A DNA stretch of 61,114 nt, the filler included, from a candidate division TA06 bacterium SM23_40 (GTDB lineage: Bacteria > LJUI01 > SM1-40): the NCBI GenBank assembly GCA_001303705.1. It is 4 parts of 4 records of this genome, joined end to end, with 100 filler letters (N's around TTAATTAATTAA, not from the genome) between each part and the next. Parts side by side here need not be neighbours in the genome. Positions count along the whole stretch, not along the records: positions 18,374 to 32,692 come from LJUI01000057.1; 3 more parts are not named here. The stretch is one strand, 5' to 3'. How positions within the stretch are numbered: position 1 is the first letter of the stretch; the number at the start of each line of letters is the position of its first letter. The notes under the pieces were generated by a model. The model saw nothing but the letters and a program-made list of their open reading frames with translations. It did no database searches and was not told where the DNA came from. This document shows, piece after piece, positions 16,887-47,017 of this stretch. The translations under genes and the position numbers were made by a program.

Positions 16887-17360
16887 GGCTGCCATCTCCT
16901 TCGGTTGTGCCTCTTTGTCACACCCGAGCACCGCACCGGGGCGATCCACCTCGTCATAGCGTCCCCGCAGGCCTTCGTATCACTACAATAGGTGCCGCTG
17001 CCCTGCTCCCCAAGAGGACCCCCCGTTATCATGCTCAGAATAGCATGTCTCGATGGAGTTGTCGAGTAATATCAGCTCGAAAAAATCACCCGCCTCATTT
17101 GCGCGCGCTTCCCGGACGCTGGTCTCACCAGTGAAAGTGGAGCCCCCAAATCCGCATTCGAGAGACCCTACCCCGCCTCCTCGTATCTGGTAGTCTAGCA
17201 CAATCTCTGGTGAGGCTCCACTACCGCAGGTTCGTATCATTTGACCCCATGAGACATATCTCGTATGTTAGCTCATCGTCTAGAGTGGATCCTTTCTCAT
17301 GGAAGTCATGATGGGACTGCCGGAAAAGCCTCGATCTGCTGCCCCCAGGGTCATATGATA

Positions 17361-18273: not shown

Positions 18274-18373
18274 NNNNNNNNNNNNNNNNNNNNNNNNNNN
18301 NNNNNNNNNNNNNNNNNTTAATTAATTAANNNNNNNNNNNNNNNNNNNNNNNNNNNNNNNNNNNNNNNNNNNN
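18274..18373. other. Artificial contig spacer
   Basis: N44-TTAATTAATTAA-N44, with stops in all six frames. Confidence 0.97.
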
Positions 18374-18530
18374 CCAGCCAGTACCCGGCACCCACTCCCA
18401 CAAAGAGGCTCTCGGCGAACTTGTACACGGGATTGTCGCGGTACAGAAAGCTGAAGATCGCGAGAGTGAGAAAAGCTCCGACCCATATCCCGACCGTCTC
18501 AACCCACCCGAGTCCGCCAATCGTCTCCAC
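18374..18530 (-). CDS. Cassette gene D3, membrane protein (5' part only, truncated)
   Basis: IWVGAFLTLAIFSFLYRDNPVYKFAESLFVGVGAGY, paralog of D1/D2. GTG start inferred. Confidence 0.85.
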
Positions 18531-18543
18531 GGCAGCGTCCCCT

Positions 18544-19377
18544 CTAGGCCTCGCTCTCTCTCCTCCGGGAGAGAAGGTAGCTGATGTTCCCCAGGACAAC
18601 GAACAGAATGATGAGGAGATGGACTGCAGACTGCGCATCCATTCCACGCGCCGCCGTGCCGGGCTGCTCGATCAAGATCTCGTACTCCGCTGCTCCCGCC
18701 ATGCCCCCGAGCAGGCCCAGCAGCTGACCGGATTCCATGTACGGATAGAAGTTCGGCGCGCTCACCGCTGTCACGCCCGCACCCATCGGGACGTCGAAGC
18801 GGCTCTGCACTTGCTGCACCCACTCCCGCGTTCCGGGAGTCCCGGCTGAGATACTCACAAGAAAAGCAATATCGGCGAAGTTTGAGATTTTCCGCATGAG
18901 CGGCAGCTCCTCAACCGGCGTGAGGTAGAAGTCGCGGGGGAAGAGGCCGGGGATCGAGGTCCCCATCTCCACCATCGCATTCGGGCCGCCGGTTGTGTAC
19001 CCCAGATTGACGTAGTCGACTCCGTACTCCTTCCCGTACTCTGCTGCGACCTGCTGGTGGGCGGCTTCGACGAGCGGCGGCCCCTCCGGCCAGAGGCAGA
19101 CGGAGATGACACGCAGGTTGCGGCTGAAGCAGTGGCGGTACACCGCCAGAGTCATCGGCTGGAGTTCCGGCATCCCGTCCGGGCTGTAGTCACCGGCGAG
19201 CATTACGATCGAACCCTCGGGCAGGCCCTCGATCTCGTCAAACAGACCCCGTGTCGATCGCCCAACCGCCACCGGCAGGCGGAAGGGGAAGAGGAACGGC
19301 AGGACAACGCATATCGCGACGAAGAGGAAGACGACGCGTCGGTCGATGCTCTGGAGTCGTTCGAAGAATCGTATCAT
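18544..19377 (-). CDS. Cassette gene C3, two-TM protein with a large soluble alpha/beta domain
   Basis: IDRRVVFLF..DYSPDGMPELQPM..GVDYVNLGY..GLLGGMAGAAEYE..MDAQSAVHL; paralog of C1/C2. Confidence 0.85.
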   Translation of the reverse strand: MIRFFERLQSIDRRVVFLFVAICVVLPFLFPFRLPVAVGRSTRGLFDEIEGLPEGSIVMLAGDYSPDGMPELQPMTLAVYRHCFSRNLRVISVCLWPEGPPLVEAAHQQVAAEYGKEYGVDYVNLGYTTGGPNAMVEMGTSIPGLFPRDFYLTPVEELPLMRKISNFADIAFLVSISAGTPGTREWVQQVQSRFDVPMGAGVTAVSAPNFYPYMESGQLLGLLGGMAGAAEYEILIEQPGTAARGMDAQSAVHLLIILFVVLGNISYLLSRRRESEA

Positions 19378-19394
19378 GAGAGGGCCGATCCTCC

Positions 19395-20036
19395 CTATTC
19401 TCCGCCCAGGTATGCCCGTTCGATCCCGAGTATGATGCGCAGACCCATCGCCATGACCCCCATGGCAGCTCCCATCATGATCCCGCGGAATCCGATCATA
19501 TTCGGCACATTCATGATCCACTCCGTCACCACCGGCAGCTGCAGGGCTGTGGGCAGTCCTCTCGTCAACAGGCTACCCAGCGGTACCCGTCCCAGCATTA
19601 CGATGACCGCTGCGAGCAGCAGGAGCGTGGCCTCCCAGTTGCGGACGCGAAAGGCGCGGTACGCCGCCGAGGCGATGAAGAACGCGAGAAGGGCGAACAT
19701 CGTCATATCGAGGTGGACTTTCAGGTGCCGGAACAGGTAGTTGAATGGTGTGCCCTCTCCCACCCCCCAGACCAGACCGGTGATCATCATGGCGAACATG
19801 CCGGCCAGGAGTACAATGCTGTACGGCCAGCCGGCAGTGCGGCGAGGGATCCTCTCAAAGAGATGGATGCGCAGGAGATTACCGATCCCGAGGACGATGG
19901 AGGCGGCGATAACGATGACGCTCCACTGGCGGAGCTCAGACGCGGCGTTGGCCACCAGCGGATGGGGCACGAAGAAGTCGACGAGCTGGACGAACCCGGC
20001 CACGAAGGTGATGATCAGAGGGATCTCTCTACGCAT
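19395..20036 (-). CDS. Cassette gene B3, multi-pass membrane protein
   Basis: MRREIPL..TMFALLAFFIASAAYRAFR..MLGRVP..RIILGIERAYLG; paralog of B1/B2. Confidence 0.88.
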   Translation of the reverse strand: MRREIPLIITFVAGFVQLVDFFVPHPLVANAASELRQWSVIVIAASIVLGIGNLLRIHLFERIPRRTAGWPYSIVLLAGMFAMMITGLVWGVGEGTPFNYLFRHLKVHLDMTMFALLAFFIASAAYRAFRVRNWEATLLLLAAVIVMLGRVPLGSLLTRGLPTALQLPVVTEWIMNVPNMIGFRGIMMGAAMGVMAMGLRIILGIERAYLGGE

Positions 20037-20054
20037 TATACTCGTTCATCCTCT

Positions 20055-20159
20055 CGCTTCACGCTTCACGCTTCACGCTTCACGCTTCACGCTTCACGCT
20101 TCACGCTTCACGCTTCACGCTTCACGCTTCACGCCTCACGCTTCACGCTTCACGCCTCA
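20055..20159. repeat. Heptamer tandem repeat (CGCTTCA)x15
   Basis: 15 copies; copies 12 and 15 are CGCCTCA. Lies between genes A3 and B3. Confidence 0.95.
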
Positions 20160-20288
20160 CGCGTTTCTGCACGCCGCCCGATTCTCTGTACTTCATCTGT
20201 TCGGCGCGCCGCCAGTCCCTTCGTGGCACAGACGCCCGCACCAGTCACCCAATAGAAGAAAAACCGGCGTGGCAGCCGGAACGCGACT

Positions 20289-21560
20289 CTATTGCCCCGC
20301 CACATAGAAGAAGTTTCTGAAAATGTCGGCGATGGCTGTGAGCGGAGCGACCCCGAATGCCACCGCAGTCTCCATGATCACTCCGACGATGATAGCGACC
20401 ATGACGAACGCCTTCCCCAGATCCGAGCCCTTGAGACTCCCGAGCAGCTTCGGCTCGCGGGACAGGTATGCGCTCGCGGCATAGAGCTCCTCCCCGATCA
20501 GGGTGTAGTCGCATGCGGTGATGAAGAACGGCAGCTGGGATACCATCGCCGTGCCCGCGACCTGGATCGCCCCAGCTTCGAACCCGGTCTCCGCGAGCAG
20601 AAGCGACTCTGCCCAGAATGCCCCCATATAGAGGTTGGCCGCCGGCCTCTCACGGAGCATGATGCCGTTCACCGCGGCGGCGAACGCAAACTGGGCGTCG
20701 GAGAGATATCGTATATTGTCAGGATTGTACGCGTCGGGTTTGCCGACCGATAGATATGCCTCCTTCACAACCTCCTCGGCTGCGGACATGACGACAGCGC
20801 GGGCCGTGGGCACGAGGAGCGGGCTTTCGTATCTGGCCGTGATCTTGGCCACATGGGTCAAGATGGAGAGACTGGCCACGGTCATGATGTTGTCGATCTC
20901 ACCGATCCCCGGAACATAGAGAACCGGTTTCCCCATCTCTGTGGCGCGTCCGATCGCCTCCTCGACCGCGGTCAGGCCGGGGATGCGACGGACGAAGAGC
21001 TCCTTCCCCCGCCGCGCCTGAGCGATGTATGTGAGCACGAAGCTGAAGAAGAGTACGAGGATGATGAACATGTTGAGCCTTCTTGTGCGGAACCAGTTGG
21101 CGCGGGAGGCCGCCGGCCCGCTCGGCTCAGAGTCGACAGTCTGCATGTCATCCTTCGCCCGCACAATGTAATAGTACGTCGTCCCATCGGTAGCCGTAGT
21201 GTCGACGTACGACTCAACGCCCGGCGGAACCTCGTCGATCAGTAGATACCCTCTGCCCGGCTGTGTTGAACGAAGGATATCATACCCCACGACATCGTCA
21301 TCGCCCGCACCATCATCGCGCGACCGCGTCCAGCTGATGGCGATCTGCCTTCCCCCATCACCCGGCACATCGTGAGCGACAACTGAGGTCGCCGGTCCGG
21401 GAGGCCGAGTAGCGATGAAGGCCTCGAGAAACGCCGATTCGCCGAGGGGCTCCTCACCCGGCTGGAGCGGAGCACCTGCCGCGCTCCCTCCGATGTCGAT
21501 CCCTGCCGCAAGGGAGGCGATGAGCATGACGATGATAGAAATCGATGAATGCACGCTCAT
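20289..21560 (-). CDS. Cassette gene A3: FN3 domain, TM, DUF6754-like domain, TM
   Basis: Signal-like N-terminus; FN3 (ISW..YDILRS..YYYIVRA); RRIPGL..GRATEMGKP..QLPFFITACDYTLIGEELYAASAYL. Start after AGGAG. Confidence 0.85.
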   Translation of the reverse strand: MSVHSSISIIVMLIASLAAGIDIGGSAAGAPLQPGEEPLGESAFLEAFIATRPPGPATSVVAHDVPGDGGRQIAISWTRSRDDGAGDDDVVGYDILRSTQPGRGYLLIDEVPPGVESYVDTTATDGTTYYYIVRAKDDMQTVDSEPSGPAASRANWFRTRRLNMFIILVLFFSFVLTYIAQARRGKELFVRRIPGLTAVEEAIGRATEMGKPVLYVPGIGEIDNIMTVASLSILTHVAKITARYESPLLVPTARAVVMSAAEEVVKEAYLSVGKPDAYNPDNIRYLSDAQFAFAAAVNGIMLRERPAANLYMGAFWAESLLLAETGFEAGAIQVAGTAMVSQLPFFITACDYTLIGEELYAASAYLSREPKLLGSLKGSDLGKAFVMVAIIVGVIMETAVAFGVAPLTAIADIFRNFFYVAGQ

Positions 21561-21777
21561 CCGAGCTCCTGTAGGTCGGCCACTCTGTCTGGCATACGTA
21601 TTCCCCGGTGCGCTGAGACCCAACTCCGAGCCGCACCGTATCATATCCTCTGCGATCCTGTCAAGGCCCGCCTGTATCAATTTGCCCGGGGCCGCGTCGC
21701 CGGATCAGCGTCCCTGGCGCCGACGATGTCCGGCCGCCCGCCAGAGGCTCACCACGCCATAGCCCCCTCTCAATTCA

Positions 21778-22419
21778 TCAGCGGATGAGCCCCAGCCAGT
21801 CCCGGAACAGAAACTGCATGCGCCCGATCAGGAGTGAGACGCGGGCCATCACGGTATATCCGAATGAGGCGCCGAATCCCACCATGAGGAACCAGATCCC
21901 GATCCTGCTCGCTCCACCCAGCACTCCCTTGTGTTCCCGCGAAAAGAAGAAGTAGAGAAGCGAGCAGATGAGGCCGATGAGAAGGAGCGCGGCCGTGATC
22001 GAGACGGTCGGGGCCATGGCAGCGTGAACCTGGGCCAGCACGCGCGCCTGCATGTAGGAGGGGATAGCGAGGCCGGCGTACCCTCCGACGTAGAACGCGA
22101 TGGCATATCGGCTGATCCAGGCGAACCGGGGAAAGAACCTCGTGAACATGAGAAGTCCGAGCACGCCCGGAACAAGGGGGAGGAGCACTCCACCTCTCAG
22201 CACCGGGACGAGGAGCTGCCCTACGATATTGGCGTTCCAGTAGATGAGGGCCCAGTATCCTGCCGACACGCCGACGAGCAGGTGCTCGGCGAACTTGTAG
22301 AATGGATTGTCCCGGTACAGGAACGAATAGATGCACAGGGTCAAGATCGCCCCCACCCAGATGGCGAACCGTTCAGGAGTGAACGGCCAGAACCCTGTCC
22401 ACAGAGAGACTTCGTTCAT
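21778..22419 (-). CDS. Cassette gene D2, multi-pass membrane protein
   Basis: SFLYRDNPFYKFAEHLLVG..FLMVGFGASFGYTVMARVSLLIGR. Start overlaps the C2 stop. Confidence 0.88.
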   Translation of the reverse strand: MNEVSLWTGFWPFTPERFAIWVGAILTLCIYSFLYRDNPFYKFAEHLLVGVSAGYWALIYWNANIVGQLLVPVLRGGVLLPLVPGVLGLLMFTRFFPRFAWISRYAIAFYVGGYAGLAIPSYMQARVLAQVHAAMAPTVSITAALLLIGLICSLLYFFFSREHKGVLGGASRIGIWFLMVGFGASFGYTVMARVSLLIGRMQFLFRDWLGLIR

Positions 22420-23390
22420 CAGTCTGTACCCTTCCCCCGCGCCGACTCTGCGAGCTCCTCTGCCCGGCGCCTTCTCCTGAGCGTGAAGAATGCAGCGTTT
22501 CCCAGCACTATGAATGCAATAATGGCAGCATGGACGATGGACTGTGAATCCATCCCGATCGATGCCTCCCGGAACCGCCTCTCGAGCGCGCGCAGCTGCG
22601 CCTCGGGGAGCGCACGGCGCCTCGCCTCGGCGATCCCCAGCTCTTCCTCGAGGTCGTTCACCAGCTTCTCGTATTCCGAGGCTCCCTTCATCCCCCCGAG
22701 CAGACCGATGGCCTGTCCGGTATCGAGATAGGGATAAAAGTTGAGCGCCTGAACCGCAGTCACCCCGAGCGCCACTTGCTGCCGGTAGGGCGTATTCGCG
22801 TACAGCACCCAGAACTCGGCAAGTGCGGTGGCGGCGATCGAGACGACGAGATCGATGTCATTGTAGGTATGCACTTCCTCGAGGAGCTCGATCTCCCCGA
22901 TGGGCACACCGCCGTAGTCACGTGGATAGACGCCGTGCAGATCCCGACCGATGGCCAGCATCACGGCCGACGCCCCTGCCATATATCCGAGATAGACGTA
23001 GTCTTCCTGGTTCACCTTTCCATAATCGGCGGCTACCTCGCTCATCGCGATCCGGCCCAGGGCCGTCCCGTCCGGGTGGTTGGCGACGCCGATGACGACA
23101 AGATCGCGGACGAAGCAGTGCCGGAGCACGGCTCTTACCATGGGATACATCTCGGGCATCGTCGACGGGCCGAAATCGAATGAGATGAGTACCACCGACC
23201 CTGGAGGGAGCGTTTCGACGTAGTCGAAGACCTGCCGCACCGGCTCGGTGACGTTGGTGGGCAGGCCAAGGGGGAAGAAGAACGGAATGACCACGGCGAG
23301 GGCGATGAGCAGATAGATGATCCGCCGGTCCAAGGCCTGGAGGTGCTCTTGCCATGTTCTCTTCTGTTTCATTTCCCCCCTCCCGTTCAT
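22419..23390 (-). CDS. Cassette gene C2
   Basis: LDRRIIYLL..DFGPSTMPEMYPM..GLLGGMKGASEYE..MDSQSIVH. Start 23390 (ATGA overlap with B2) or 23372. Confidence 0.85.
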   Translation of the reverse strand: MNGRGEMKQKRTWQEHLQALDRRIIYLLIALAVVIPFFFPLGLPTNVTEPVRQVFDYVETLPPGSVVLISFDFGPSTMPEMYPMVRAVLRHCFVRDLVVIGVANHPDGTALGRIAMSEVAADYGKVNQEDYVYLGYMAGASAVMLAIGRDLHGVYPRDYGGVPIGEIELLEEVHTYNDIDLVVSIAATALAEFWVLYANTPYRQQVALGVTAVQALNFYPYLDTGQAIGLLGGMKGASEYEKLVNDLEEELGIAEARRRALPEAQLRALERRFREASIGMDSQSIVHAAIIAFIVLGNAAFFTLRRRRRAEELAESARGKGTD

Positions 23391-24043
23391 TTCCCCCCTC
23401 CAAGGTACGTACGTTCGATGCCGAGGATCACCTTGAGCGCCGTCGAGATCGATCCCAGGCCGACCCCGATCATGATGCCCCGCTTGGCCGCGAGGTTGGG
23501 CACCGTCAGTATCCAGTCCGTGAGCGCGGGAATCCCCACCTGCTCCGGCAGCCAGGACGTGAGCAGATGCCCGAGGGGCACCCTGCCGAGCATCACCATG
23601 ACCGCGGCCACGAGCAGGAGCGTCGCCTCCGGTGTTCTGGCCCGGAAGGTGCGGAACGCAGCTGAGGCGATGAAGAAGGCAAGCAGCGAGAACATGGTCG
23701 AGTCCATGGGGACCTGGATGTTCTGGAAGATCCACATGAACGGTGTCCCCTCCTGCAATCCCCTCCCGTCCAGATCCCATGGCCTGCCGGCAAGGATCAT
23801 CGCAAACAGTCCTATGATGACCACGGCGCTGTACCACCAACCCGTCTTGCGCTGGCGAAGCTTGGTGACGTGGAGCCGCGTGATGCTGAAGATCCCCAGC
23901 AACATCGCGAAAGTATAGATGAGTCGGAGCCAGGCGAGCAACGTCTGATTCGCGGTCTCCATGGCAGGGTGAGGCGTGAAGTACAGCGATGTCCCGAAGA
24001 GCCCGGCGAAGAAGGCGATCCCCAGTGGGATTTGACGTTGCAT
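23387..24043 (-). CDS. Cassette gene B2
   Basis: MQRQIPL..STMFSLLAFFIASAAFR..VPNLAAKRGIMIGVGLG. Confidence 0.88.
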   Translation of the reverse strand: MQRQIPLGIAFFAGLFGTSLYFTPHPAMETANQTLLAWLRLIYTFAMLLGIFSITRLHVTKLRQRKTGWWYSAVVIIGLFAMILAGRPWDLDGRGLQEGTPFMWIFQNIQVPMDSTMFSLLAFFIASAAFRTFRARTPEATLLLVAAVMVMLGRVPLGHLLTSWLPEQVGIPALTDWILTVPNLAAKRGIMIGVGLGSISTALKVILGIERTYLGGGK

Positions 24044-24066
24044 GAGATGTCTCCGCGGCAGACTGG

Positions 24067-25311
24067 CTACCGTGCAGCGAACAGCCCGCGGAACCAGTCG
24101 AAGCGTGCAACTGAGAGCACTGCTCCGGTGATCGCCAGTACGACGAGAATCAGCTTAGCCCAATCCTGCCCCTTGAGGCTCCCGAGGAGGAGCGGCTCGC
24201 GCGAGAGGTAGGCACTCGCCGCATACAGTTCCTCGCCTATAAGTGTATAGTCGCACGCTGTGATGAAGAATGGAAGCTGGGCAACTGCGTCCGTGCCCGC
24301 AATCTGGATCGCGCCCGTCGATGCCCCTGTCTCCGCGAGGATGAGCGACTCCGCATAGAAATAGCCCATGAAGAAGTTCGTCGCCGGCCGATCCCGCACC
24401 ATGATGCCGTCGACGGCAGCGGTATAGCCAAACTGGCTATTCGTCACATAGAAGACCATCTCCTCCCGGTATGCGTCCGGTCTCCCGACCTCGAGAAACG
24501 CCTCCTTGACCACTTCCTGCTCTACCGCCATCACCATCGGATCGTAACAGGGAACGACGAGCTTTGAACCGTACTCTGCGGCCCTCCTCGCCACCCTTCC
24601 CAGGATGTTGATCGCCGCGAGCGTGGCAACGTCGTCCATCGGATTGAGCCCGGAGACGTAAAGGATCGGCTTTCCCAGCTCGGTCGCCCGCCCAACCGCC
24701 TCGTCCACTGCCTCCAGACCGGCGATCTTGCGAATGAAGAGCTCTGTCCCGCGCCTGGCGCGGGAGATGAACCAGATAAGCAGCGCGGCGAAGCCGACTA
24801 TACTGACGAGTACGCTCGTGCGGCCGAAGTTGAACCACTGCGGCCCGGCGAGGGCGCTCGTACCCCCGGCACCACGGCTCGCCACGTCGCCGGCCATCGC
24901 GGTGACGAAGTAGGTGTACGGCGTTCCGTCCTCGACAGGCGAGTCGACATAGGTATCGACGCCAGGCCCCAGGGCAGCGAGCAGCATGGGCTCGCCCCCT
25001 GAGGTGTCGACGCGCGAGATGACATACCCGGTTACGGTGCCGAGCCCCGCTCCGTCATCCGGAGAGAGGTCCCATCTCAATGTGATCGCTCCTCCCCCAT
25101 CGTTTGGGGTGTCGGAGGCGCGGATGTTGGCTGGAGGCGCGGGGGAGACGGCGGAGAGATCAAGGGGAGTTGCGGGACCGACCGCCACCTCGGCCCGGGC
25201 GTGCGGGATGAGGAGAACGCCTACAAGAGGTATGAGAAGGACGAGCGAGCGCGCCGACCCGGCCGCACGGAGCACTGCCGCGAGGAGTGCGGGGCGGCGA
25301 GGGTTGACCAT
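24067..25311 (-). CDS. Cassette gene A2b: FN3 plus DUF6754-like
   Basis: DTPNDGGGAITLRW FN3 and the conserved C-terminal domain. Start uncertain (25311-25509). Confidence 0.85.
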   Translation of the reverse strand: MVNPRRPALLAAVLRAAGSARSLVLLIPLVGVLLIPHARAEVAVGPATPLDLSAVSPAPPANIRASDTPNDGGGAITLRWDLSPDDGAGLGTVTGYVISRVDTSGGEPMLLAALGPGVDTYVDSPVEDGTPYTYFVTAMAGDVASRGAGGTSALAGPQWFNFGRTSVLVSIVGFAALLIWFISRARRGTELFIRKIAGLEAVDEAVGRATELGKPILYVSGLNPMDDVATLAAINILGRVARRAAEYGSKLVVPCYDPMVMAVEQEVVKEAFLEVGRPDAYREEMVFYVTNSQFGYTAAVDGIMVRDRPATNFFMGYFYAESLILAETGASTGAIQIAGTDAVAQLPFFITACDYTLIGEELYAASAYLSREPLLLGSLKGQDWAKLILVVLAITGAVLSVARFDWFRGLFAAR

Positions 25312-25474
25312 GTCACGTACCGCAGCTTCCGGTGCTATGCACCGCAGGGCGGGCGGAATACGGCTCGCCACCCTCGGCGACAATGCCGCGAGGCCGGGCC
25401 CGGCAGGAAAGCCTGCTGCCCTACAGAGTCGACCATCCATATGGAGTCCGTTCAGAGATGGGGCAGGCGATCGC

Positions 25475-26749
25475 TCACCCCGCGGAGAAGAGCCGGGAGA
25501 ATCCTGCAATCCCGAGGGTGGTGGCCAGAATACCCGCAGCCATGAGCGCCGCGATCAGGAGTTTCGCCATATCCTGACCCTTGAGGCTTCCGAGCGCGAG
25601 CGGCTCTCGCGAGAGGTAAGCACTCGCCGCATACAGCTCCTCGCCGATGAGTGTGTAGTCGCAGGCGGCAATGAAGAAGGGGAGCTGCGCCACGGCATCC
25701 GTGCCGGAGATCTGGATCGCACCCACGCTGTTGCCGGTCTCGGCGAGGATGAGCGACTCCGCCCAGAACATGCCGAGGAGGAAGATCGTCGCCGGACGCT
25801 CGCGCACCATGATGCCGTCAACCGCGGAGACATAGCCGAACTGGCTGTAGGTGATGTAGCTGATGTCGTTCGCGTCGTATGCGTCAGGTCGCCCGGCCTC
25901 AGTATAGGCCTCGCGGACGATCTCCTGGGCGACCGGCATCACGACAGGATCAGTGCAGGGGACGATGAGGCGACTCTCATAATCAGCGGCCCGGCGAGCC
26001 ACCCGGGAGAGGATATTGAGCGAGGCCAGGGTGGCGACATCACTGATGGTGCTCAATCCCGGGACGTACAGGATCGGTTTTCCCATCTCAGTCGCGCGCC
26101 CAAGCGCCTCGTCAACCGCCTCGAGCCCGGCGATGCGTCGGACGTAGAGATCCCGCCCCCGGCGCGCAACGGTGATGAAGCCTGCGAGCAGAGAGGTGTA
26201 GACGACGACGCCGACGAGTACGTTAACCCTCCCCCGGTGAAAGAGCTGGGCCGAGGCCAGGGCAGGGCCGGACGGCTGCGACATCGGAGTAGTGAATTCC
26301 CGGGCGCCTGCCTGCCCCACGGCGCGGACTCTGTACGCAAAGGAGCGTCCATCCTCAGCCGCACCGTCGGTGAACTGAGCGAGGCCACCGGATACCGTGC
26401 CCACGAGTTCCCACTCCCCATCAGGGTGCTCAGCACGCCATATCTCGTACGAGGTGATGGAGAGGGCGGGACGAATCTCAGAAGGAAGCTCTTCCCACCT
26501 CACGGTGATGCTTCCTCCTGCGTCGTTCGGCGTGTCGTACGCAGAGACTCCAGCAGGTGGCGGGATGTCCGCGGAAAATGCTTCCGGGGGAGAGGCGGCA
26601 TCGCCGAGACCTCCCTCTCCGGGCGCCTGTCCGAGGAGAGGTGACGATGCGAATAACAGAGCGACAAGGGCAATATAGAACGAGGCCAGGACCCGGCCTC
26701 GGCATGGTATATACTGTGCTCGGTCCAAACAGGGGCTCTCTCTTCTCAT
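25475..26749 (-). CDS. Cassette gene A2a: FN3 plus DUF6754-like
   Basis: YDTPNDAGGSITVRW; GRATEMGKPILY; AACDYTLIGEELYAASAYL. Confidence 0.87.
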   Translation of the reverse strand: MRRESPCLDRAQYIPCRGRVLASFYIALVALLFASSPLLGQAPGEGGLGDAASPPEAFSADIPPPAGVSAYDTPNDAGGSITVRWEELPSEIRPALSITSYEIWRAEHPDGEWELVGTVSGGLAQFTDGAAEDGRSFAYRVRAVGQAGAREFTTPMSQPSGPALASAQLFHRGRVNVLVGVVVYTSLLAGFITVARRGRDLYVRRIAGLEAVDEALGRATEMGKPILYVPGLSTISDVATLASLNILSRVARRAADYESRLIVPCTDPVVMPVAQEIVREAYTEAGRPDAYDANDISYITYSQFGYVSAVDGIMVRERPATIFLLGMFWAESLILAETGNSVGAIQISGTDAVAQLPFFIAACDYTLIGEELYAASAYLSREPLALGSLKGQDMAKLLIAALMAAGILATTLGIAGFSRLFSAG

Positions 26750-26904
26750 CCCATTGATGCTCCCGCCATTTCCCCTCGCCTATCGACAAGCTACTACGAG
26801 CATACCCGCCGGCTCCTCCACCAGTCATGCGCACATCGCTCAGGCATCCCAGGACCCGGTCGACGATCCCCAGCCGGATCATCGTCCTTCCATCTACTCG
26901 ATGA

Positions 26905-27582
26905 TTACTCGATGATCCCCAGCCAGTCGCTCAGCAAAAAGTAGACACGGCCGATCAGGAGCGAGATACGGGCCATCACCGTATATCCGAACGACGCGCC
27001 GAACCCGATCATGAGGAAGACGATCCCGATTCGCGATGTCACACCAAGGACACCTCGATGCGGCCGGGAGAAGAAGAAGTAACTGAGGGTGCAGAGCACC
27101 CCCACAGCAGCAAGAGGGACGCTCATCAGCCAGAGTCCGTTCCAGATCGTCGGCTCTGCGAGAAGCGTCCGCCATGCCTGAGTCGGGATGAACGAGACCA
27201 TCGTCCCCTGCATCTGCTGGATGATCCGGGTGAGCATCGTTCGAGGAATGGAGAGTCCGGCTCCCGACCCCACATAGAATGCGATCGACCAGCGGCTGAG
27301 CCACCCACCACGGGGGAAGAAGCGGAGGAAGAAGAATATCCCCAGGATGCCGGGGATGATGAGGATGAAGTTCCCGTGCTGGCCTTCGGTGACCGCAGCC
27401 CACAGGGGTCTGGCCAGGTTGGGCAGCACCGAGTTATGGTAATAGATGACGAGGTAGTACGCGGCCGAGACCCCGACGAACAGATGCTCTGCCGCCTTGT
27501 ACACCGGGTTGTCGCGATAGAGGAACGAGTAGATACAGAATGTCAGGAGCGCAGCCAGCCAGACCCAGAGATCAGTCGACAT
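26905..27582 (-). CDS. Cassette gene D1
   Basis: WLAALLTFCIYSFLYRDNPVYK..FGASFGYTVMARISLLIGR. Confidence 0.88.
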   Translation of the reverse strand: MSTDLWVWLAALLTFCIYSFLYRDNPVYKAAEHLFVGVSAAYYLVIYYHNSVLPNLARPLWAAVTEGQHGNFILIIPGILGIFFFLRFFPRGGWLSRWSIAFYVGSGAGLSIPRTMLTRIIQQMQGTMVSFIPTQAWRTLLAEPTIWNGLWLMSVPLAAVGVLCTLSYFFFSRPHRGVLGVTSRIGIVFLMIGFGASFGYTVMARISLLIGRVYFLLSDWLGIIE

Positions 27583-27586
27583 TGCC

Positions 27587-28429
27587 CTATCCTCTCCTCC
27601 CTCCCCCGGCAGCCCCGCGCCGCTGGACGAAGAAGGCGACGTTTCCGATGATGACGAAGACTATGATGATCAAGTGGGCGATCGATTGCCCATCCATCCC
27701 GATTATCGCCCTCCCCGGTACACCAATGAGGTACTCGTACTCGGCAGCACCCTTGAGCCCACCGATCAGGCCGAAGAGCTGGCCTGTCTGAAGAAACGGG
27801 TAGTAGTCGGTCGCCGACACCGCGGTGCAGCCCGCCGCCACCGGCTCCTGATAGGGGCCGTTGGCGTAGGCAACCCAGGCCTCGGTGATGGCGCTCGCGG
27901 CGAACGTAACGATGAGAGAGATATCATCGTAGGTATGGATATCTGCGATCATAGGGATCTCGGAGAGCGGGGTGCCGAAGTAGTCTTCGGGGAATGCCCG
28001 GTGGATGTCCTGACCCATCTGGTCGATGACCATGGCGATAGCCGGCTTGAACCCGAGGAAGACGTAATCGATGCCGTTCACCTTGCCGTACTCCTCGGCC
28101 GCCTCGGACGTGGCGTCGAGCGCCAGACCGGGGCCAGCCTGGTGGAGCGTCATCGTGATCACCTTCAGATCTTTGGAGAAGCAATGGCGGAGCACGGCGA
28201 GCGTCATGGGCTGGAGCTCAGGCATCGCCGCTGGATCGTAATCGATCGAGATGAGTACCGGCGGGTCGTCCGGTGTGAGCGTCTCTATCCGATCATAGAC
28301 ATCCTTGACGCGGCGCGTCACGTAAGTGGGCAGGCGTAGCGGGAATATGAACGGAATGAGGACGGCCAGCGCGATACAGAGAAAGATAATCCGTCTATCG
28401 ATGTGCATCAGACGTTCGAACAATCCCAT
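27587..28429 (-). CDS. Cassette gene C1
   Basis: IDRRIIFL..DYDPAAMPELQPM..GLIGGLKGAAEYE..MDGQSIAHL. Confidence 0.88.
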   Translation of the reverse strand: MGLFERLMHIDRRIIFLCIALAVLIPFIFPLRLPTYVTRRVKDVYDRIETLTPDDPPVLISIDYDPAAMPELQPMTLAVLRHCFSKDLKVITMTLHQAGPGLALDATSEAAEEYGKVNGIDYVFLGFKPAIAMVIDQMGQDIHRAFPEDYFGTPLSEIPMIADIHTYDDISLIVTFAASAITEAWVAYANGPYQEPVAAGCTAVSATDYYPFLQTGQLFGLIGGLKGAAEYEYLIGVPGRAIIGMDGQSIAHLIIIVFVIIGNVAFFVQRRGAAGGGRRG

Positions 28430-28458
28430 CGAATGTTATCCTCCCGATCTCGCTCCCA

Positions 28459-29082
28459 TCAGTCGCCGCCGCCGATCCAGGAGCGCTCGATGCCGAGGAT
28501 GATCTTCACCGCGGTCGATATCATCCCCAGCCCGACCCCTATCATGATCCCTCGCTTCGCCGCGAGGTTCGGCACCTCGAGTATCCACTCCGTGATCCGG
28601 GGAAATCCTGCCCATATGCTCTGGCCGATGGGAACCCGGCCGAGCATGACAATGCCCGCAGCGAGGAGCAAGAGTGTCGCCTCCAGGGTGCGGGCACGGA
28701 AGGCACGGTACGCCGCCGAGGCAATATAGAATGCGAGAAGCGAGAACATCGTCCCCTCAAGGGGCACCTGGACATAGTTGTACAATTTCATGAACAGGCC
28801 TTCCTGCCCGATGCCGCCGAAAAATCCCACAGCGAGCGTGAGGACGAGGCCTCCCATAGCGATTAAGCTGTACCACCACCCTGAGGCGCGTCTCCTGATC
28901 CTTGCCCAGTGGACTCTGATCAGGCTCCCGGTGCCGAGGACGAGCGCGAACGTGAAGACGATCAGGTACCATGTCCTGATCGTCTCACCATAGACCAGTG
29001 AAACACGATGCGGGATGAAGTACTGAATCGCCATCGTTACGCCGAGGAAGAAGCAGATGGCGAGCGGAACCTGACGCCGCAC
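28459..29082 (-). CDS. Cassette gene B1
   Basis: GTG start after AAGGAG; same motifs as B2/B3. Confidence 0.88.
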   Translation of the reverse strand: MRRQVPLAICFFLGVTMAIQYFIPHRVSLVYGETIRTWYLIVFTFALVLGTGSLIRVHWARIRRRASGWWYSLIAMGGLVLTLAVGFFGGIGQEGLFMKLYNYVQVPLEGTMFSLLAFYIASAAYRAFRARTLEATLLLLAAGIVMLGRVPIGQSIWAGFPRITEWILEVPNLAAKRGIMIGVGLGMISTAVKIILGIERSWIGGGD

Positions 29083-29124
29083 GTAATCATCTCCTTTCGA
29101 TTGCAGATATCGAGGCCACGCCGC

Positions 29125-30393
29125 CTATCCGGCGGCGAAGAGGCCGACGAAGCGTGGCCACCCAAAGGTCGTGAAGATCATGCCCACAATGATGAGGGTA
29201 GCGATGAGGAGCTTGGCCAGATCCTGTCCCTTCAGGCTTCCGAGCTGAAGCGGCTCGCGCGACAGATAGGCGCTGGCCGCGTACAATTCTTCTCCGATGA
29301 GTGTGTAGTCGCACGCAGCGATGAAAAACGGGAGCTGGGCGACTGCGTCGGTGCCGGCGATCTGTATCGCACCGATGCCCGCCCCCGTCTCGGCCAGAAT
29401 GAGCGACTCGGCCCAGAACATCCCGAGGAAGAAGTTGGTCGCCGGCCGATCCCGCAGCATAATGCCGTCGACCGCTGCCACATATCCGAACTGACTGAAG
29501 GTGACGTAGTAGATGTCGTCCTCACGGTAGGCATCCGGATGTCCCATATCCGTGTAGGCCTCGCGGACGATCTCCTGGCAGACAGGCATCACCACTGGAT
29601 TTCGATTGGGGATGACGATCCGGGTCTCATACTCGGCAGCCTTCCGCGCAACCCGGCTCAGGATGTTGAGCGAAGCGATCGTCGCCACGTCCTGGATCAC
29701 GCTCAGGCCGGGCACATAGAGGATCGGCTTCCCCATCTCCGTCGCCCGCCCGATCGCCTCGTCCACGGCCTCCAACCCCGCGATCCTGCGGACATAGAGT
29801 TCCTTGCCCCCCTTTGCCTGCTGGATGAATAAGACGAGAAATGCGGTAAACAGGACGACCCCCACCAGGACATTCACTCTACCGCGGTGGAAGAGCTGGC
29901 CGCTCGACCTGACTGGCGCTGTCGGATCGGCGTCGGCGGTCAATCCGTCGTGCACGCGGACGACGTAGCTGTATTCGACCCCATCATACACTGAAGCGTC
30001 CTCGAACGCCGTCGTCCCCGCGACAACGCTCCCCACGGAGACGAGCGCAGGATCGAGCGATGAGCTCCGCAGTATCTCATATGTGACCGGACGCCTCTCT
30101 GCCTCTGCGGACGAAGGCGACCAGGTGACCGTAATACTCCCACCTGCGTCGTTCGGGGTATCAAATGCCCGTACATTGCTGGCCGGCTCAGGGGGAGCCA
30201 ATCCCTCGAGCACCGACTCTCCTATCTGGGCGCCGGCGAGAGAGAAAAGAAAGAGGCCGCCGATGGTGAGAAGGAGCAGTGCCGATACCGCTCCTCGACC
30301 GCCATCAGACGGCCCTCGTGACATCTCCCCCGCTTCCGTACAGACAGGGGTCCCTCCAGAATTGCTGTCCACGCCTTCTCGTTGTCGAATCAT
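29125..30393 (-). CDS. Cassette gene A1: FN3 plus DUF6754-like
   Basis: FDTPNDAGGSITVTW FN3, a TM, then the conserved C-terminal domain. Start uncertain (30324 or 30393). Confidence 0.87.
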   Translation of the reverse strand: MIRQREGVDSNSGGTPVCTEAGEMSRGPSDGGRGAVSALLLLTIGGLFLFSLAGAQIGESVLEGLAPPEPASNVRAFDTPNDAGGSITVTWSPSSAEAERRPVTYEILRSSSLDPALVSVGSVVAGTTAFEDASVYDGVEYSYVVRVHDGLTADADPTAPVRSSGQLFHRGRVNVLVGVVLFTAFLVLFIQQAKGGKELYVRRIAGLEAVDEAIGRATEMGKPILYVPGLSVIQDVATIASLNILSRVARKAAEYETRIVIPNRNPVVMPVCQEIVREAYTDMGHPDAYREDDIYYVTFSQFGYVAAVDGIMLRDRPATNFFLGMFWAESLILAETGAGIGAIQIAGTDAVAQLPFFIAACDYTLIGEELYAASAYLSREPLQLGSLKGQDLAKLLIATLIIVGMIFTTFGWPRFVGLFAAG

Positions 30394-30468
30394 AGTTGCG
30401 TGTGTCTAGCCCGGATACTCTCCTCCTCTGATGACAGTGGCCGGGGAGGCCGAACACAAGGCCTCACT

Positions 30469-30497
30469 CCTATACCACACCCCCACTCCACCGTCAA
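30469..30497 (-). promoter_or_regulatory. Candidate sigma70 promoter at the head of the cassette array
   Basis: Minus strand TTGACG, 17-bp spacer ending TGG, then TATAGG (imperfect -10 with TG extension). Confidence 0.5.
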
Positions 30498-30522
30498 GCG
30501 AAAAATCCCGCGCCGACGAAGA

Positions 30523-30700
30523 TAACCTTCAGCACCTGACAACGTCCCTGACTGCCGGACCCTCGCAGAATGGTCCTCAGAGGAGAACAGGTGTTGGTAA
30601 CCTTCAAAACCCAGATACGTGCCCGGAGTAACCTACAGAACCTACCAACGTCCCCCGGGTGACGGGGTAACCTTCTGAACCTACCAACGTCCCCGGGTGA
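30523..30700. repeat. Cluster of ~28-bp GTAACCTTCTGAACCTACCAACGTCCCC-type repeats
   Basis: Good copies at 30628 and 30667; degenerate copies at 30523 and 30597. Confidence 0.85.
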
Positions 30701-32170
30701 TTAGCGCAGAAGAGCCATGCGCTTCGTGTCGGTGAACTCGCCTGTCTCGAGGCGGCAGAAGTAGATACCGCTCGCCACCTTCCGTCCTCGCTGGTCCCGT
30801 CCGTCCCACACAACGCTGTGGAAGCCGGCGGGAACCGTCTCCTGCGCCAGAGTGCGCACCAGAGCGCCCCGGATGTCATAGACCGCCACTTTCACCGGAG
30901 TCCCGGCGCTCAGCGAGTAGCAGATCGTCGTGGAGGAACCGAACGGGTTGGGACGGTTCTGCGCGAGATACTGTGCCACCGCGGGCAGCTCATCCTCACC
31001 TTCGGAAACGCCGACCATGCCATCGGCGTCGGTCTTGATCAGATAGACATCATCCTCGACATCGCCCGGGGGCCAGGTGTATCCGACGACGATGTATCCC
31101 CCATCGAGAGTCTGAGCGACCGAATATCCTCCATCCCACGCCAGGCCGGCGTACGCACGCGTCCACAGCGTATCGCCCGCTGAGTCGGTCCTAATCAGGT
31201 AGAGGTCCTCGATGCCCGTGGGGAAGGGCTCGCCGTATCCGGTGATAATGTATCCTCCGTCGTTTGTCTGTGCGACCGAATAGCCTCCATCTGCATACGG
31301 GCCGCCATACGTACGCGTCCAGATTGTATCGCCGACACCGTCGGTTTTAACCAGATAGACATCCCTATCGCCGGCTCCATACGACTCGGTCTCTCCGACG
31401 ATGATATATCCCCCATCGCTCGTCTGGGCGACCGAGAAGCCCCCCTCGTAGTTTGGGCCGCCATAGGTGCGCGTCCACATGGTATCGCCAAGGGAGTCAG
31501 TCTTGATCACATAGATGTCCCAGGACCCCGCGCCGAAGGTCGTCGTGCCCCCGGCCACGATGTATCCTTCATCGAGAGTTTGCGCGACCGACTCGCCAGA
31601 GTCGTAACTGGAACCGCCGTACGTGCGCGTCCAGACCGTATCGCCATTCGCGTCAACCTTGATCAGGACTACGTCGCTAAGTTCTGCGCCGTAGGATTCG
31701 GTGTACCCCGTGACGACGAATCCGCCATCGAGCGTCGGCGCGACCGACCTGCCCGTCTCCGTCTGCGGGCCGCCGTACGGGCGTGTCCACACCGTGTGGC
31801 CATCGGCATCCGTCCTGACCAGGTATATATCGGTCTGGCCCTCACCGAAAGACGTTGTGTTACCAGCGATGATATATCCCCCATCGAGCGTCAGGGCAAC
31901 CGACCTGCCTCCATCGGTCTGGGGGCCGCCAAAAGTCGTCGACCATGATGTGGACCCCCATGCATCAGTCTTGATCAGCCAGAGGTCCGACTGGCCGGCC
32001 CCGTAGGACCGAGTCGTTCCGGCGACGATATATCCCCCGTCGGGCGTCTGGGCGACCGACCGGCCCAGATCACTGGAGGCGCCACCATAGGTGCGCTCGA
32101 ACGTGATCTGAGCAGCGGCGGTCAACGGCACCAGCAGAGCGAGCACGAACGCCAAGGTTCTCATAGCCAT
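30701..32170 (-). CDS. Secreted beta-propeller repeat protein with a FlgD-like C-terminal domain
   Basis: Paralog of 14856..16886 lacking the two Ig modules; signal peptide ending LTAAAQ. Confidence 0.85.
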   Translation of the reverse strand: MAMRTLAFVLALLVPLTAAAQITFERTYGGASSDLGRSVAQTPDGGYIVAGTTRSYGAGQSDLWLIKTDAWGSTSWSTTFGGPQTDGGRSVALTLDGGYIIAGNTTSFGEGQTDIYLVRTDADGHTVWTRPYGGPQTETGRSVAPTLDGGFVVTGYTESYGAELSDVVLIKVDANGDTVWTRTYGGSSYDSGESVAQTLDEGYIVAGGTTTFGAGSWDIYVIKTDSLGDTMWTRTYGGPNYEGGFSVAQTSDGGYIIVGETESYGAGDRDVYLVKTDGVGDTIWTRTYGGPYADGGYSVAQTNDGGYIITGYGEPFPTGIEDLYLIRTDSAGDTLWTRAYAGLAWDGGYSVAQTLDGGYIVVGYTWPPGDVEDDVYLIKTDADGMVGVSEGEDELPAVAQYLAQNRPNPFGSSTTICYSLSAGTPVKVAVYDIRGALVRTLAQETVPAGFHSVVWDGRDQRGRKVASGIYFCRLETGEFTDTKRMALLR

Positions 32171-32485
32171 CTCCTCTCTCGGTTAGGCCTCTCATCCACG
32201 GATTCGCTTCTCGCACCGACTACAGTCTCATACCTCTCCTGCTCACATCCGATCACGACACTACCATCATTGCATATCGCTGAGCGGGCTTACCTCCCTT
32301 CGTGTGACATATGTGGACGCCGCTGCACTCTCCCCTCAACATCAGCACTCCACCGCTATTGCACGAATACCCGATAGCATATAGATAGCAGATTTCGCTC
32401 CAATTGTCCACGAATTTCTTGGGGCAATAGAACCGTGCGCCTCAACTCGGGCAACTCGGCAGAATCGTACTCCCCGACAGTCTCA

Positions 32486-32692
32486 GTCAGTCGCCCCCAC
32501 TTCCACCATGATCGACCGGAGTATCTCTGCCGCGAGAACAGCATCGAGCACTTGCGGCTGTTCAAGCACAACGGCGTCAGCAGCACCTTCACTCCCCCAC
32601 ACCACGACAGGAACATTGAGCGCTCCGCTCGCCACGAGCTCTCGTCCCTTGCGAAGGAAGATGCTCTCACCGCTCCCGGCACCGGTCAGGTC
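32486..32692 (-). CDS. Possible 3' end of an unknown gene cut by the contig end
   Basis: Hand translation DLTGAGSGESIFLRKGRELV..EILRSIMVEVGATD* is open from the gap. No family recognised. Confidence 0.35.
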
Positions 32693-32792
32693 NNNNNNNN
32701 NNNNNNNNNNNNNNNNNNNNNNNNNNNNNNNNNNNNTTAATTAATTAANNNNNNNNNNNNNNNNNNNNNNNNNNNNNNNNNNNNNNNNNNNN
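32693..32792. other. Artificial contig spacer
   Basis: N44-TTAATTAATTAA-N44. Confidence 0.97.
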
Positions 32793-32809: not shown

Positions 32810-34321
32810 GTGATGGCCAAGCTCTCAGAGTGGCTGAAGGGTCTGGAGCCGGTCTCGGTCGTGGGAAGCACCGCGATCGATGTCTCCGGTATCGCCTATG
32901 ACTCACGGACGGTAAAGAAGGGCGATCTGTTCGTCTGCATCAAGGGCTTCAGCGACGATGGGCACCGTTATCTCGATGACGCGAGGCAGGCCGGTGCCGT
33001 TGCCGCCGTCGTCGAGGAGGAAGTGGAGGCACCCGATTCGTTTACCGTTGTTCACGTTCCCAATTCCCGGAGGGCGCTCGCGCTCATCTCCGACAAGTAC
33101 TGTGATCGCCCCTCACGCAAGCTTGCCGTCATCGGCATCACGGGCACGAACGGCAAGACAACCACCTCATATCTGACGCGCGCAGTGCTCGCGGCCGCAG
33201 GAGAACGCACGGGGCTAATAGGAACCGTCCGCCACTGGATCGGTGAACGTGCGATCGTTCCTGTTCACACAACTCCCGAGTCGCTCGACCTTCAGGAGCT
33301 GCTCGCGTCGATGGTTAGGGAGAATATTTCGAGCGTAGTGATGGAGGTCTCGTCCCACGCCCTTGCGCTCGACCGCGTCGTCGGGGTCGAATTCGATGCT
33401 GCCTTGTTCACGAATATCTCGCGCGATCACCTCGATTTCCACCGGACCTATGACGCCTATCGGGCGGCTAAGGCGCATCTGTTCACGCTGCTAGCCGTGT
33501 CGGCGAAGGAGTCGAAATTCGCTGTCTTCAACTTCGACGATCCAGTAGGACGCGAATTGGCAGATGCGTGGGACGGCGATGCGCTTGTCTACGGGCTCGA
33601 TCCAGAGGCCGACGTGAGGGCGAGCGCTCTAGAGACTTCCCTCAATAGGACAGGCTTCAGCGTAACCTTTGCAGGAGAGGAACGACGCGTGACGATTCCT
33701 CTCGGGGGGAAACACAACGTTCACAATGCACTTGGAGCATACGCAGTCGGGCTCGGGCTCGGTTTCGACAGAGGCACGATAGAGGATGGGCTCACTGCCG
33801 TGGGTCAGGTCCCCGGGCGGTTCGAGCTCGTCGTCGATGCGGATCCGTTCTCGGTCATCGTAGACTATGCGCATACGCCCGACGCGCTCCGGTTCGTTCT
33901 CAGCAGCGTGAAGGAGCTCACGTCGGGGAGGCTCATCGCCGTCTTCGGCTGTGGCGGGGACAGAGATCGCGGGAAACGGCCCCTGATGGGCGAGATTGCC
34001 GCCTCGATTGCCGACTATACGATCGTCACATCCGACAATCCACGTTCCGAGGATCCGGTCGCAATCATCGATGAGATCCTTGACGGCATCGATCGCGATC
34101 GGACGCCGGTCGGTGTTGAGCCGGACCGCCGCGCCGCAATCGAGCAGGCTCTCTCGGCGGCCAGGGCAGGAGATAGCGTCGTCATCGCGGGGAAGGGACA
34201 CGAGGACTATCAGATCCTCGGCTCGAGGCGCATCCACTTTGATGATCGCGAGACCGTCCGGGAACTACTGGGGGCGGGTTCAGGGTCGTCTGCCCCGGTG
34301 GCGGACTCTGCACGATTCTGA
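32810..34321 (+). CDS. murE: UDP-MurNAc-tripeptide synthetase, probably meso-DAP type
   Basis: GITGTNGKTT; HTTPES; MEVSSH; DYAHTPD; FGCGGDRD; DNPR; AGKGHE. Confidence 0.96.
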   Translation: MMAKLSEWLKGLEPVSVVGSTAIDVSGIAYDSRTVKKGDLFVCIKGFSDDGHRYLDDARQAGAVAAVVEEEVEAPDSFTVVHVPNSRRALALISDKYCDRPSRKLAVIGITGTNGKTTTSYLTRAVLAAAGERTGLIGTVRHWIGERAIVPVHTTPESLDLQELLASMVRENISSVVMEVSSHALALDRVVGVEFDAALFTNISRDHLDFHRTYDAYRAAKAHLFTLLAVSAKESKFAVFNFDDPVGRELADAWDGDALVYGLDPEADVRASALETSLNRTGFSVTFAGEERRVTIPLGGKHNVHNALGAYAVGLGLGFDRGTIEDGLTAVGQVPGRFELVVDADPFSVIVDYAHTPDALRFVLSSVKELTSGRLIAVFGCGGDRDRGKRPLMGEIAASIADYTIVTSDNPRSEDPVAIIDEILDGIDRDRTPVGVEPDRRAAIEQALSAARAGDSVVIAGKGHEDYQILGSRRIHFDDRETVRELLGAGSGSSAPVADSARF

Positions 34322-46917: not shown

Positions 46918-47017
46918 NNNNNNNNNNNNNNNNNNNNNNNNNNNNNNNNNNNNNNNNNNNNTTAATTAATTAANNNNNNNNNNNNNNNNNNNNNNNNNNN
47001 NNNNNNNNNNNNNNNNN
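46918..47017. other. Artificial contig spacer
   Basis: N44-TTAATTAATTAA-N44. Confidence 0.97.

Follow-up and report, generated by a model that had tools for sequence, protein, structure and literature searches.

A widespread four-gene membrane cassette encoding two Rossmann-like proteins with predicted opposite orientations in the membrane

We analyzed a 61,114-nucleotide (nt) stretch of DNA from the candidate division TA06 bacterium SM23_40 (GenBank assembly GCA_001303705.1), here called the window, in which a set of four genes, A, B, C, and D, encodes membrane proteins. An earlier reading of the sequence alone (the original prediction) had proposed that proteins A and C are distant paralogs that carry the same soluble fold on opposite sides of the membrane. 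Within the window piece 18374-32692, the same gene set occurs three times in tandem, in all cases on the minus strand. The first cassette starts with A1 (29125-30393), which is 422 amino acids long as an open reading frame; the database gene call is 399 amino acids long and starts at M24 (30324), and an identical 399-residue protein is on record. A1 is followed by B1 (28459-29082, 207 residues), a polytopic membrane protein, by C1 (27587-28429, 280 residues), in which a Rossmann-like domain lies between two transmembrane helices (TMs), and by D1 (26905-27582, 225 residues), again a polytopic membrane protein, which starts 4 nt after C1. The intergenic gaps A1-B1, B1-C1, and C1-D1 measure 42, 29, and 4 nt.

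The second cassette (21778-26749) is composed of two A genes, A2a (25475-26749) and A2b (24067-25311), each encoding a full DUF6754 protein with its own FN3-like part, and then a single B-C-D set, namely, B2 (23387-24043), C2 (22419-23372), and D2 (21778-22419). The same A-A-B-C-D pattern was also seen in 1 of the 80 related loci described below. The third cassette (18544-21560) contains A3 (20289-21560), B3 (19395-20036), and C3 (18544-19377) and is interrupted by a run of N at 18274-18373. This run and those at 32693-32792 and 46918-47017 (44 + 44 bases, with 12 bases between) divide the window, a scaffold or a concatenation of contigs, into four pieces, and genes on either side of a join are therefore not necessarily neighbors. 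Between A3 and B3, a 7-nt tandem repeat, CGCTTCA (15.4 copies with 97% matches, 20055-20162), occupies most of the intergenic gap, and this tract might be prone to slippage and so affect expression of the downstream genes. The A-B gaps in the other two cassettes are short.

Protein A1 begins with a signal-like N terminus and an FN3-like domain, followed by a TM, a Rossmann-like DUF6754 domain, and a C-terminal TM. It is a full-length member of Pfam family PF20539 (DUF6754; residues 165 to 415, E value of 8.3e-122), which Pfam describes as a domain of unknown function; the term “DUF6754” occurs in none of the papers searched. The PF20539 scores of A1, A2a, and A2b (405.7, 391.6, and 402 bits, respectively) exceed the gathering cut-off of 27 bits, the E values of the A copies in the window range from 1e-117 to 1e-122, and the listed A homologs are full-length members as well. 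Some A relatives are named “fibronectin type III domain-containing protein” by their sources, and some carry PF00041. Within the first 60 residues, ahead of the FN3 part, a hydrophobic signal-like segment is found in 97 of 108 long A homologs, and there is one TM only between the N-terminal FN3 part and the Rossmann-like domain. The A family reached at least 8000 candidates in the protein search. Across phyla, the A domain shows 52 to 76% identity to A1, much above the 33 to 52% identity of C proteins to C1, and it contains many invariant acidic and glycine residues, with an invariant G70 after strand 1.

Protein C1 consists of a basic N-terminal tail, a TM, the Rossmann-like domain, a second TM, and a basic C-terminal tail, and it is 100% identical to a hypothetical protein from candidate division TA06 bacterium DG_24. 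C1 matches no Pfam family at an E value of ≤1, and no recurrent Pfam family was found in C (0 of 131 family members). The C family comprises at least 2977 matches among 8000 scored candidates and 3658 clusters at 50% identity, and residues D63, P66, and E71 follow strand 1. Two insertion hot spots exist near profile positions 115 and 237, at which 17 of 28 long C homologs carry inserts of about 50 to 550 residues; in C2 of the window, the second hot spot is occupied by a charged insert of smaller size. One of ten scanned inserts contains a CARDB domain (29.2 bits, compared with a cut-off of 22.7), and the other nine are without a Pfam match. Fusions of C to A, B, or D were not found among the 28 long C homologs, and an ESM Atlas search with C returned only its own unnamed clusters, with no usable named match. 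The peptides quoted in the original prediction were located in these proteins: A1 contains IQIAGTDAVAQLPFFIAACDYTLIGEELYAASAYL, SLKGQDLAKLLIATLIIVG, DDIYYVT, and AKGGKELYVRR, and C1 contains PVAAGCTAVSATDYYPFLQTGQLFGLIGGLKGAAEYE, GMDGQSIAHLIIIVFVIIG, IDYVFLG, DRR, and QRR. Only RRRR had been misplaced, as it is absent from C1 and present in the paralog C2.

B1 has about six hydrophobic segments, a basic N terminus, and basic loops that follow segments 2 and 4, and D1 has about six hydrophobic segments and a non-basic N terminus. B and D were also considered as a second inverted pair, which was rejected for lack of signal (hhalign E value of 0.071, not colinear). Neither Pfam nor NCBIfam holds a family for B, C, or D; a Pfam scan of all members of these three families gave scattered matches only, the commonest being TMD0_ABC in 8 of 73 B members. 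Searches of NCBIfam and PADLOC with A, B, C, and D matched no family, and a PDB sequence search with the four family profiles returned nothing but riboflavin kinase, at an E value of 0.26 for C.

The A-B-C-D cassette is conserved. When 80 related GTDB loci were scanned with hidden Markov models (HMMs) built from the A, B, C, and D proteins of the window, an uninterrupted A-B-C-D run was found in 66 of them, once in 40 loci, twice in 7, three times in 8, and with partial extra sets in the remainder. Another 11 loci are consistent with A-B-C-D and are ended by contig ends, 2 contain a doubled hit, and 1 shows the order A-B-D-C. Thus, the A and C genes are linked in one operon. Among the flanking gene families, none is present in more than 9 of the 80 loci, and the Pfam names of the neighbors (barrel-sandwich hybrid protein, PPDK, MutL, and M23 peptidase) are unrelated and form no pattern. 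The cassette is therefore a self-contained unit. In GTDB species genomes, a relative of A is encoded by at least 596 stretches, out of 599 that matched, and the source records come from WOR-3, Zixibacteria, Ignavibacteria, Poribacteria, Eisenbacteria, Stahlbacteria, Cloacimonadota, Latescibacterota, Planctomycetota, and others; the cassette is also present in TA06.

Our analysis predicts that A and C are inserted in opposite orientations, with the A domain likely to be cytoplasmic and the C domain extracytoplasmic. For 81 A-domain and 96 C sequences, the mean number of lysine and arginine residues (K+R) was determined in the 15 residues flanking each TM. At TM1 of A, K+R is 1.41 on the N-terminal side and 4.56 on the C-terminal side, and the C-terminal side is the more basic one in 100% of the sequences (81/81); at the last TM of A, the values are 2.10 and 0.63, and the N-terminal side is richer in 93%. 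The two helices of C show the opposite pattern, with 3.80 and 1.67 at TM1 (N-terminal side richer in 89%) and 2.04 and 3.98 at the last TM (C-terminal side richer in 88%). All four TM helices agree in this opposite bias, which holds in 88 to 100% of the sequences. The bias puts the A domain and both tails of C inside, and the C domain would therefore be outside.

Opposite orientation is further supported by the signal-like segment and the FN3 part that precede TM1 of A and by the CARDB insert, extracytoplasmic in type, in one C homolog, while the higher conservation of A than of C and the tolerance of C to insertions are independent hints that agree with it. In this respect, the family-wide data side with the original prediction, which had assigned the A domain to the cytoplasm and the C domain to the outer side. 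Basic residues before TM1 and after the last TM of C are indeed a family-wide bias, but C1 itself is also basic after TM1, where five K/R residues are found (RLPTYVTRRVK). Because of these residues, C1 alone is ambiguous at TM1, and its orientation is decided by the family statistics and not by DRR.

Judging from predicted structures, A and C very probably have the same architecture and belong to the same fold class (Rossmann/KTN-like), and at this level the proposal of a common soluble fold is upheld. AlphaFold2 modeled the A domain (residues 160 to 422) with a predicted local distance difference test score (pLDDT) of 93.1 and a predicted template modeling score (pTM) of 0.85 and modeled C with a pLDDT of 96.7 and a pTM of 0.92. 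The order of elements is identical in both models: a TM and one helix are followed by six strand-helix units and by a final helix that runs into the C-terminal TM. The C model contains one additional loop, which lies between helix 4 and strand 4. The two domains are similar in size (roughly 190 to 210 residues), and the stretch that is most conserved in both families is strand5-helix-strand6-helix, just before the last TM. Foldseek searches with the models returned weak, generic alpha/beta matches, which were MurQ/SIS, MCP, and RCK for A (none at an E value of ≤0.001) and PpnN/LOG-like, GT-B, and eIF2B for C (best E value of 2.8e-4). The top-50 PDB lists of the two models have 12 entries in common, which are Rossmann/KTN-like, and residues 6 to 138 of 3llv_A are covered by both models.

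The explanation that we consider best, and to which we give an even chance as a whole, is that A and C are a TM-Rossmann-TM pair of the A-B-C-D cassette that is oppositely oriented, goes back to an ancient duplication, and works in one complex. Each of the two would be a bitopic subunit of the same unusual build, in which a linker helix and then a six-stranded Rossmann/KTN-like alpha/beta domain lie between the first TM and the second, with the A domain in the cytoplasm behind an exported FN3 part and the C domain on the extracytoplasmic side. The pair would have arisen by duplication followed by topology inversion, and its sequence similarity would have decayed below detection. It is fairly likely that the four proteins assemble into a single inner-membrane complex, to which B and D would contribute a polytopic core flanked on each face by a Rossmann-like domain.

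Such a complex could act as a regulated transporter or a transmembrane relay, the C domain and the FN3 part handling a periplasmic ligand and the strongly conserved A domain binding a cytoplasmic ligand or a nucleotide. A transporter-like role is a doubtful guess, drawn from the 6+6 core, the tethered outer domain, and the KTN-like inner domain with its invariant acidic and glycine residues. Copying in tandem, combined with outer parts that vary, would be in keeping with a diversification of external recognition. In its boldest form, which we put forward tentatively, the proposal is that A-B-C-D may be a hetero-oligomeric machine of the inner membrane, so far undescribed, in FCB-type and related candidate phyla. 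At its center would stand an inverted pair of TM-Rossmann-TM subunits derived from an ancient duplication, which would put the same soluble fold on both membrane faces. A four-chain complex prediction (A domain, B, and D plus C) gave scores of 0.61, 0.79, and 0.59 for C and 0.00 and 0.00 for unrelated partners, and the score was still 0.67 when A was swapped for an unrelated protein; because no interface or contacts were returned, this prediction is uninformative on binding and sidedness.

Several points weigh against this explanation. Its account of orientation is built on the positive-inside rule, the Pfam, NCBIfam, PADLOC, and PDB sequence matches hold no hint of a function, and no homology of A and C was found at the level of sequence. 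BLASTP of A1 against C1 returned, in the region claimed to be homologous, just an 18-residue TM piece (E value of 0.046) and nothing for the soluble domains, and Smith-Waterman scores did not stand out from those of shuffled sequences (P = 0.21 for the motif region and P = 0.18 for the whole soluble domains). With profiles of the window paralogs alone, hhalign gave an E value of 0.19. With profiles of 120 close A and 120 close C hits, it gave a colinear alignment of 190 columns (A domain 48 to 251 and C 41 to 268; E value of 0.018 and probability of 2.6%), which pairs DDIYYVT with IDYVFLG and IAGTDAV with AAGCTAV and brings all six strands and helices of both AlphaFold2 models into register. 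The pairing of A1 with C1 that had been made by eye is thus reproduced by one profile pair, in register with both models, although by sequence it does not rise above chance. With more diverse profiles, the colinear alignment was lost, and the best match was that of A TM1 with the last TM of C (E values of 0.017 to 0.028), compared with 0.01 and 0.071 for the unrelated pairs A-D and B-D and 0.065 to 0.076 for reversed profiles. For the soluble domains without their TMs, scored with secondary structure, the E values were 0.43 (local) and 0.42 (global), and those of the reversed controls were 0.087 to 0.59. The A HMM scored C sequences at a mean of -1.50 bits and reversed sequences at -1.44 bits, the C HMM scored A sequences at -0.98 bits and reversed ones at -1.13 bits (P = 0.27), and the Pfam DUF6754 model matched 0 of 131 C members at an E value of ≤0.01. 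Common ancestry of A and C is therefore undetectable by sequence, as no sequence or profile test beats its controls, and the claim that the two are distant paralogs was not substantiated. By its own terms, the original prediction would fall if there were no significant profile or structural similarity; this holds by half, in that no significant profile similarity was found while the folds are similar.

With every sequence and profile test at control level, A and C may be unrelated, in which case two Rossmann-like domains were recruited independently to one membrane complex, their tethering by two TMs is a coincidence, and the match seen by eye is due to chance. Rossmann-like is the commonest alpha/beta fold, and a shared fold alone is for that reason no proof of ancestry; moreover, hundreds of PDB chains fit either model equally well, and the Foldseek top lists of the two models differ. 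However, coincidence would also have to account for an identical number and order of secondary structure elements, down to the helix that precedes strand 1 and the final helix that continues into the TM, for the same TM-domain-TM build with similar domain sizes in the same conserved operon, and for the facts that both families are most conserved at the same strand-helix stretch and that the 190-column alignment is colinear with structure. We regard independent recruitment as a real possibility that falls short of being probable, and common ancestry of A and C as plausible but unproven, with the chances about equal. If the positive-inside reading of C (or of A) were wrong, both soluble domains would lie on the same side of the membrane, as the K/R residues just after TM1 of C1 and on the domain-side flanks of C in general (the means of 1.67 and 2.04) could suggest. 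Such an arrangement is improbable in view of the consistency of the bias at four TMs across the families, the exported-type N terminus of A with a single TM ahead of the domain, and the faster evolution of C, which accepts inserts, one of them a CARDB domain. Finally, the region has a guanine-plus-cytosine (GC) content of about 61% and many spurious overlapping open reading frames, and it could be supposed that the open reading frames are not real genes or not one system and that the similarity is an artifact of GC-rich DNA. This is already refuted by the numbers of C matches and clusters and of GTDB stretches with an A relative given above, as well as by the conserved gene order and the confident predicted folds.

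On either side of the cassettes, secreted repeat proteins are encoded at 30701-32170 and 14856-16949 (minus strand). They contain DUF5122-type beta-propeller-like repeats or He_PIG/Big_9/PKD Ig domains, and both have a C-terminal FlgD_ig domain and a weak match to Por_Secre_tail (type IX secretion system [T9SS]-type sorting). Two copies of a 39-nt unit (89% matches, 30624-30700) lie directly downstream of the stop of one of these genes at 30701. The next window piece carries an ordinary Mur ligase gene (Mur_ligase, Mur_ligase_M, and Mur_ligase_C) at 32810-34321 on the plus strand.

A-B-C-D is a very large family without an assigned function, in which three of the four proteins (B, C, and D) are outside Pfam and which is often multiplied in tandem. 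Its size, its absence from Pfam, its tandem copies, and the conservation of A across phyla make the cassette a concrete target for structural and functional work. Among the known systems closest to A and C are K+ transport systems with their KTN/RCK (TrkA-N-type) Rossmann domains (3llv_A, 1lsu_A, 1id1_B, 6i8v_A, 4ei2_A, 5but_A, and 6oly_A). KTN/RCK domains have a glycine-rich nucleotide-binding loop after strand 1. By sequence, neither A nor C belongs to the Pfam KTN/RCK (TrkA_N) family, and A is a member of PF20539 (DUF6754), whereas C is not. MT0777 (PDB 1kjn), a soluble structural-genomics protein of 152 residues and of unknown function, shows 8 to 11% identity and is uninformative on function.

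According to a review (PMC3962082), oppositely oriented paralog pairs form antiparallel heterodimers (Escherichia coli YdgE/YdgF and YdgQ/YdgL and the DUF606 pairs) and are recognized by their opposite K+R bias. A and C are like the pairs described there in having an opposite K+R bias of similar size and in being linked in an operon; the summed bias is about -4.6 for A and about +4.1 for C, compared with magnitudes of 6 to 7 for the Ydg pairs (Table 1 of PMC3962082). These known pairs are small all-helical proteins of 4 to 6 TMs, clearly homologous in sequence and lacking a large soluble domain. In contrast, A and C have two TMs each and a Rossmann-like domain of about 190 to 210 residues that would fold in different compartments, their homology is undetectable, and gene B lies between them. 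If A and C are true inverted paralogs, a single soluble fold would have become able to fold and function on either side of the membrane, and the dual-topology/antiparallel-pair principle would no longer be confined to small helical transporters but would include proteins whose soluble domains are large.

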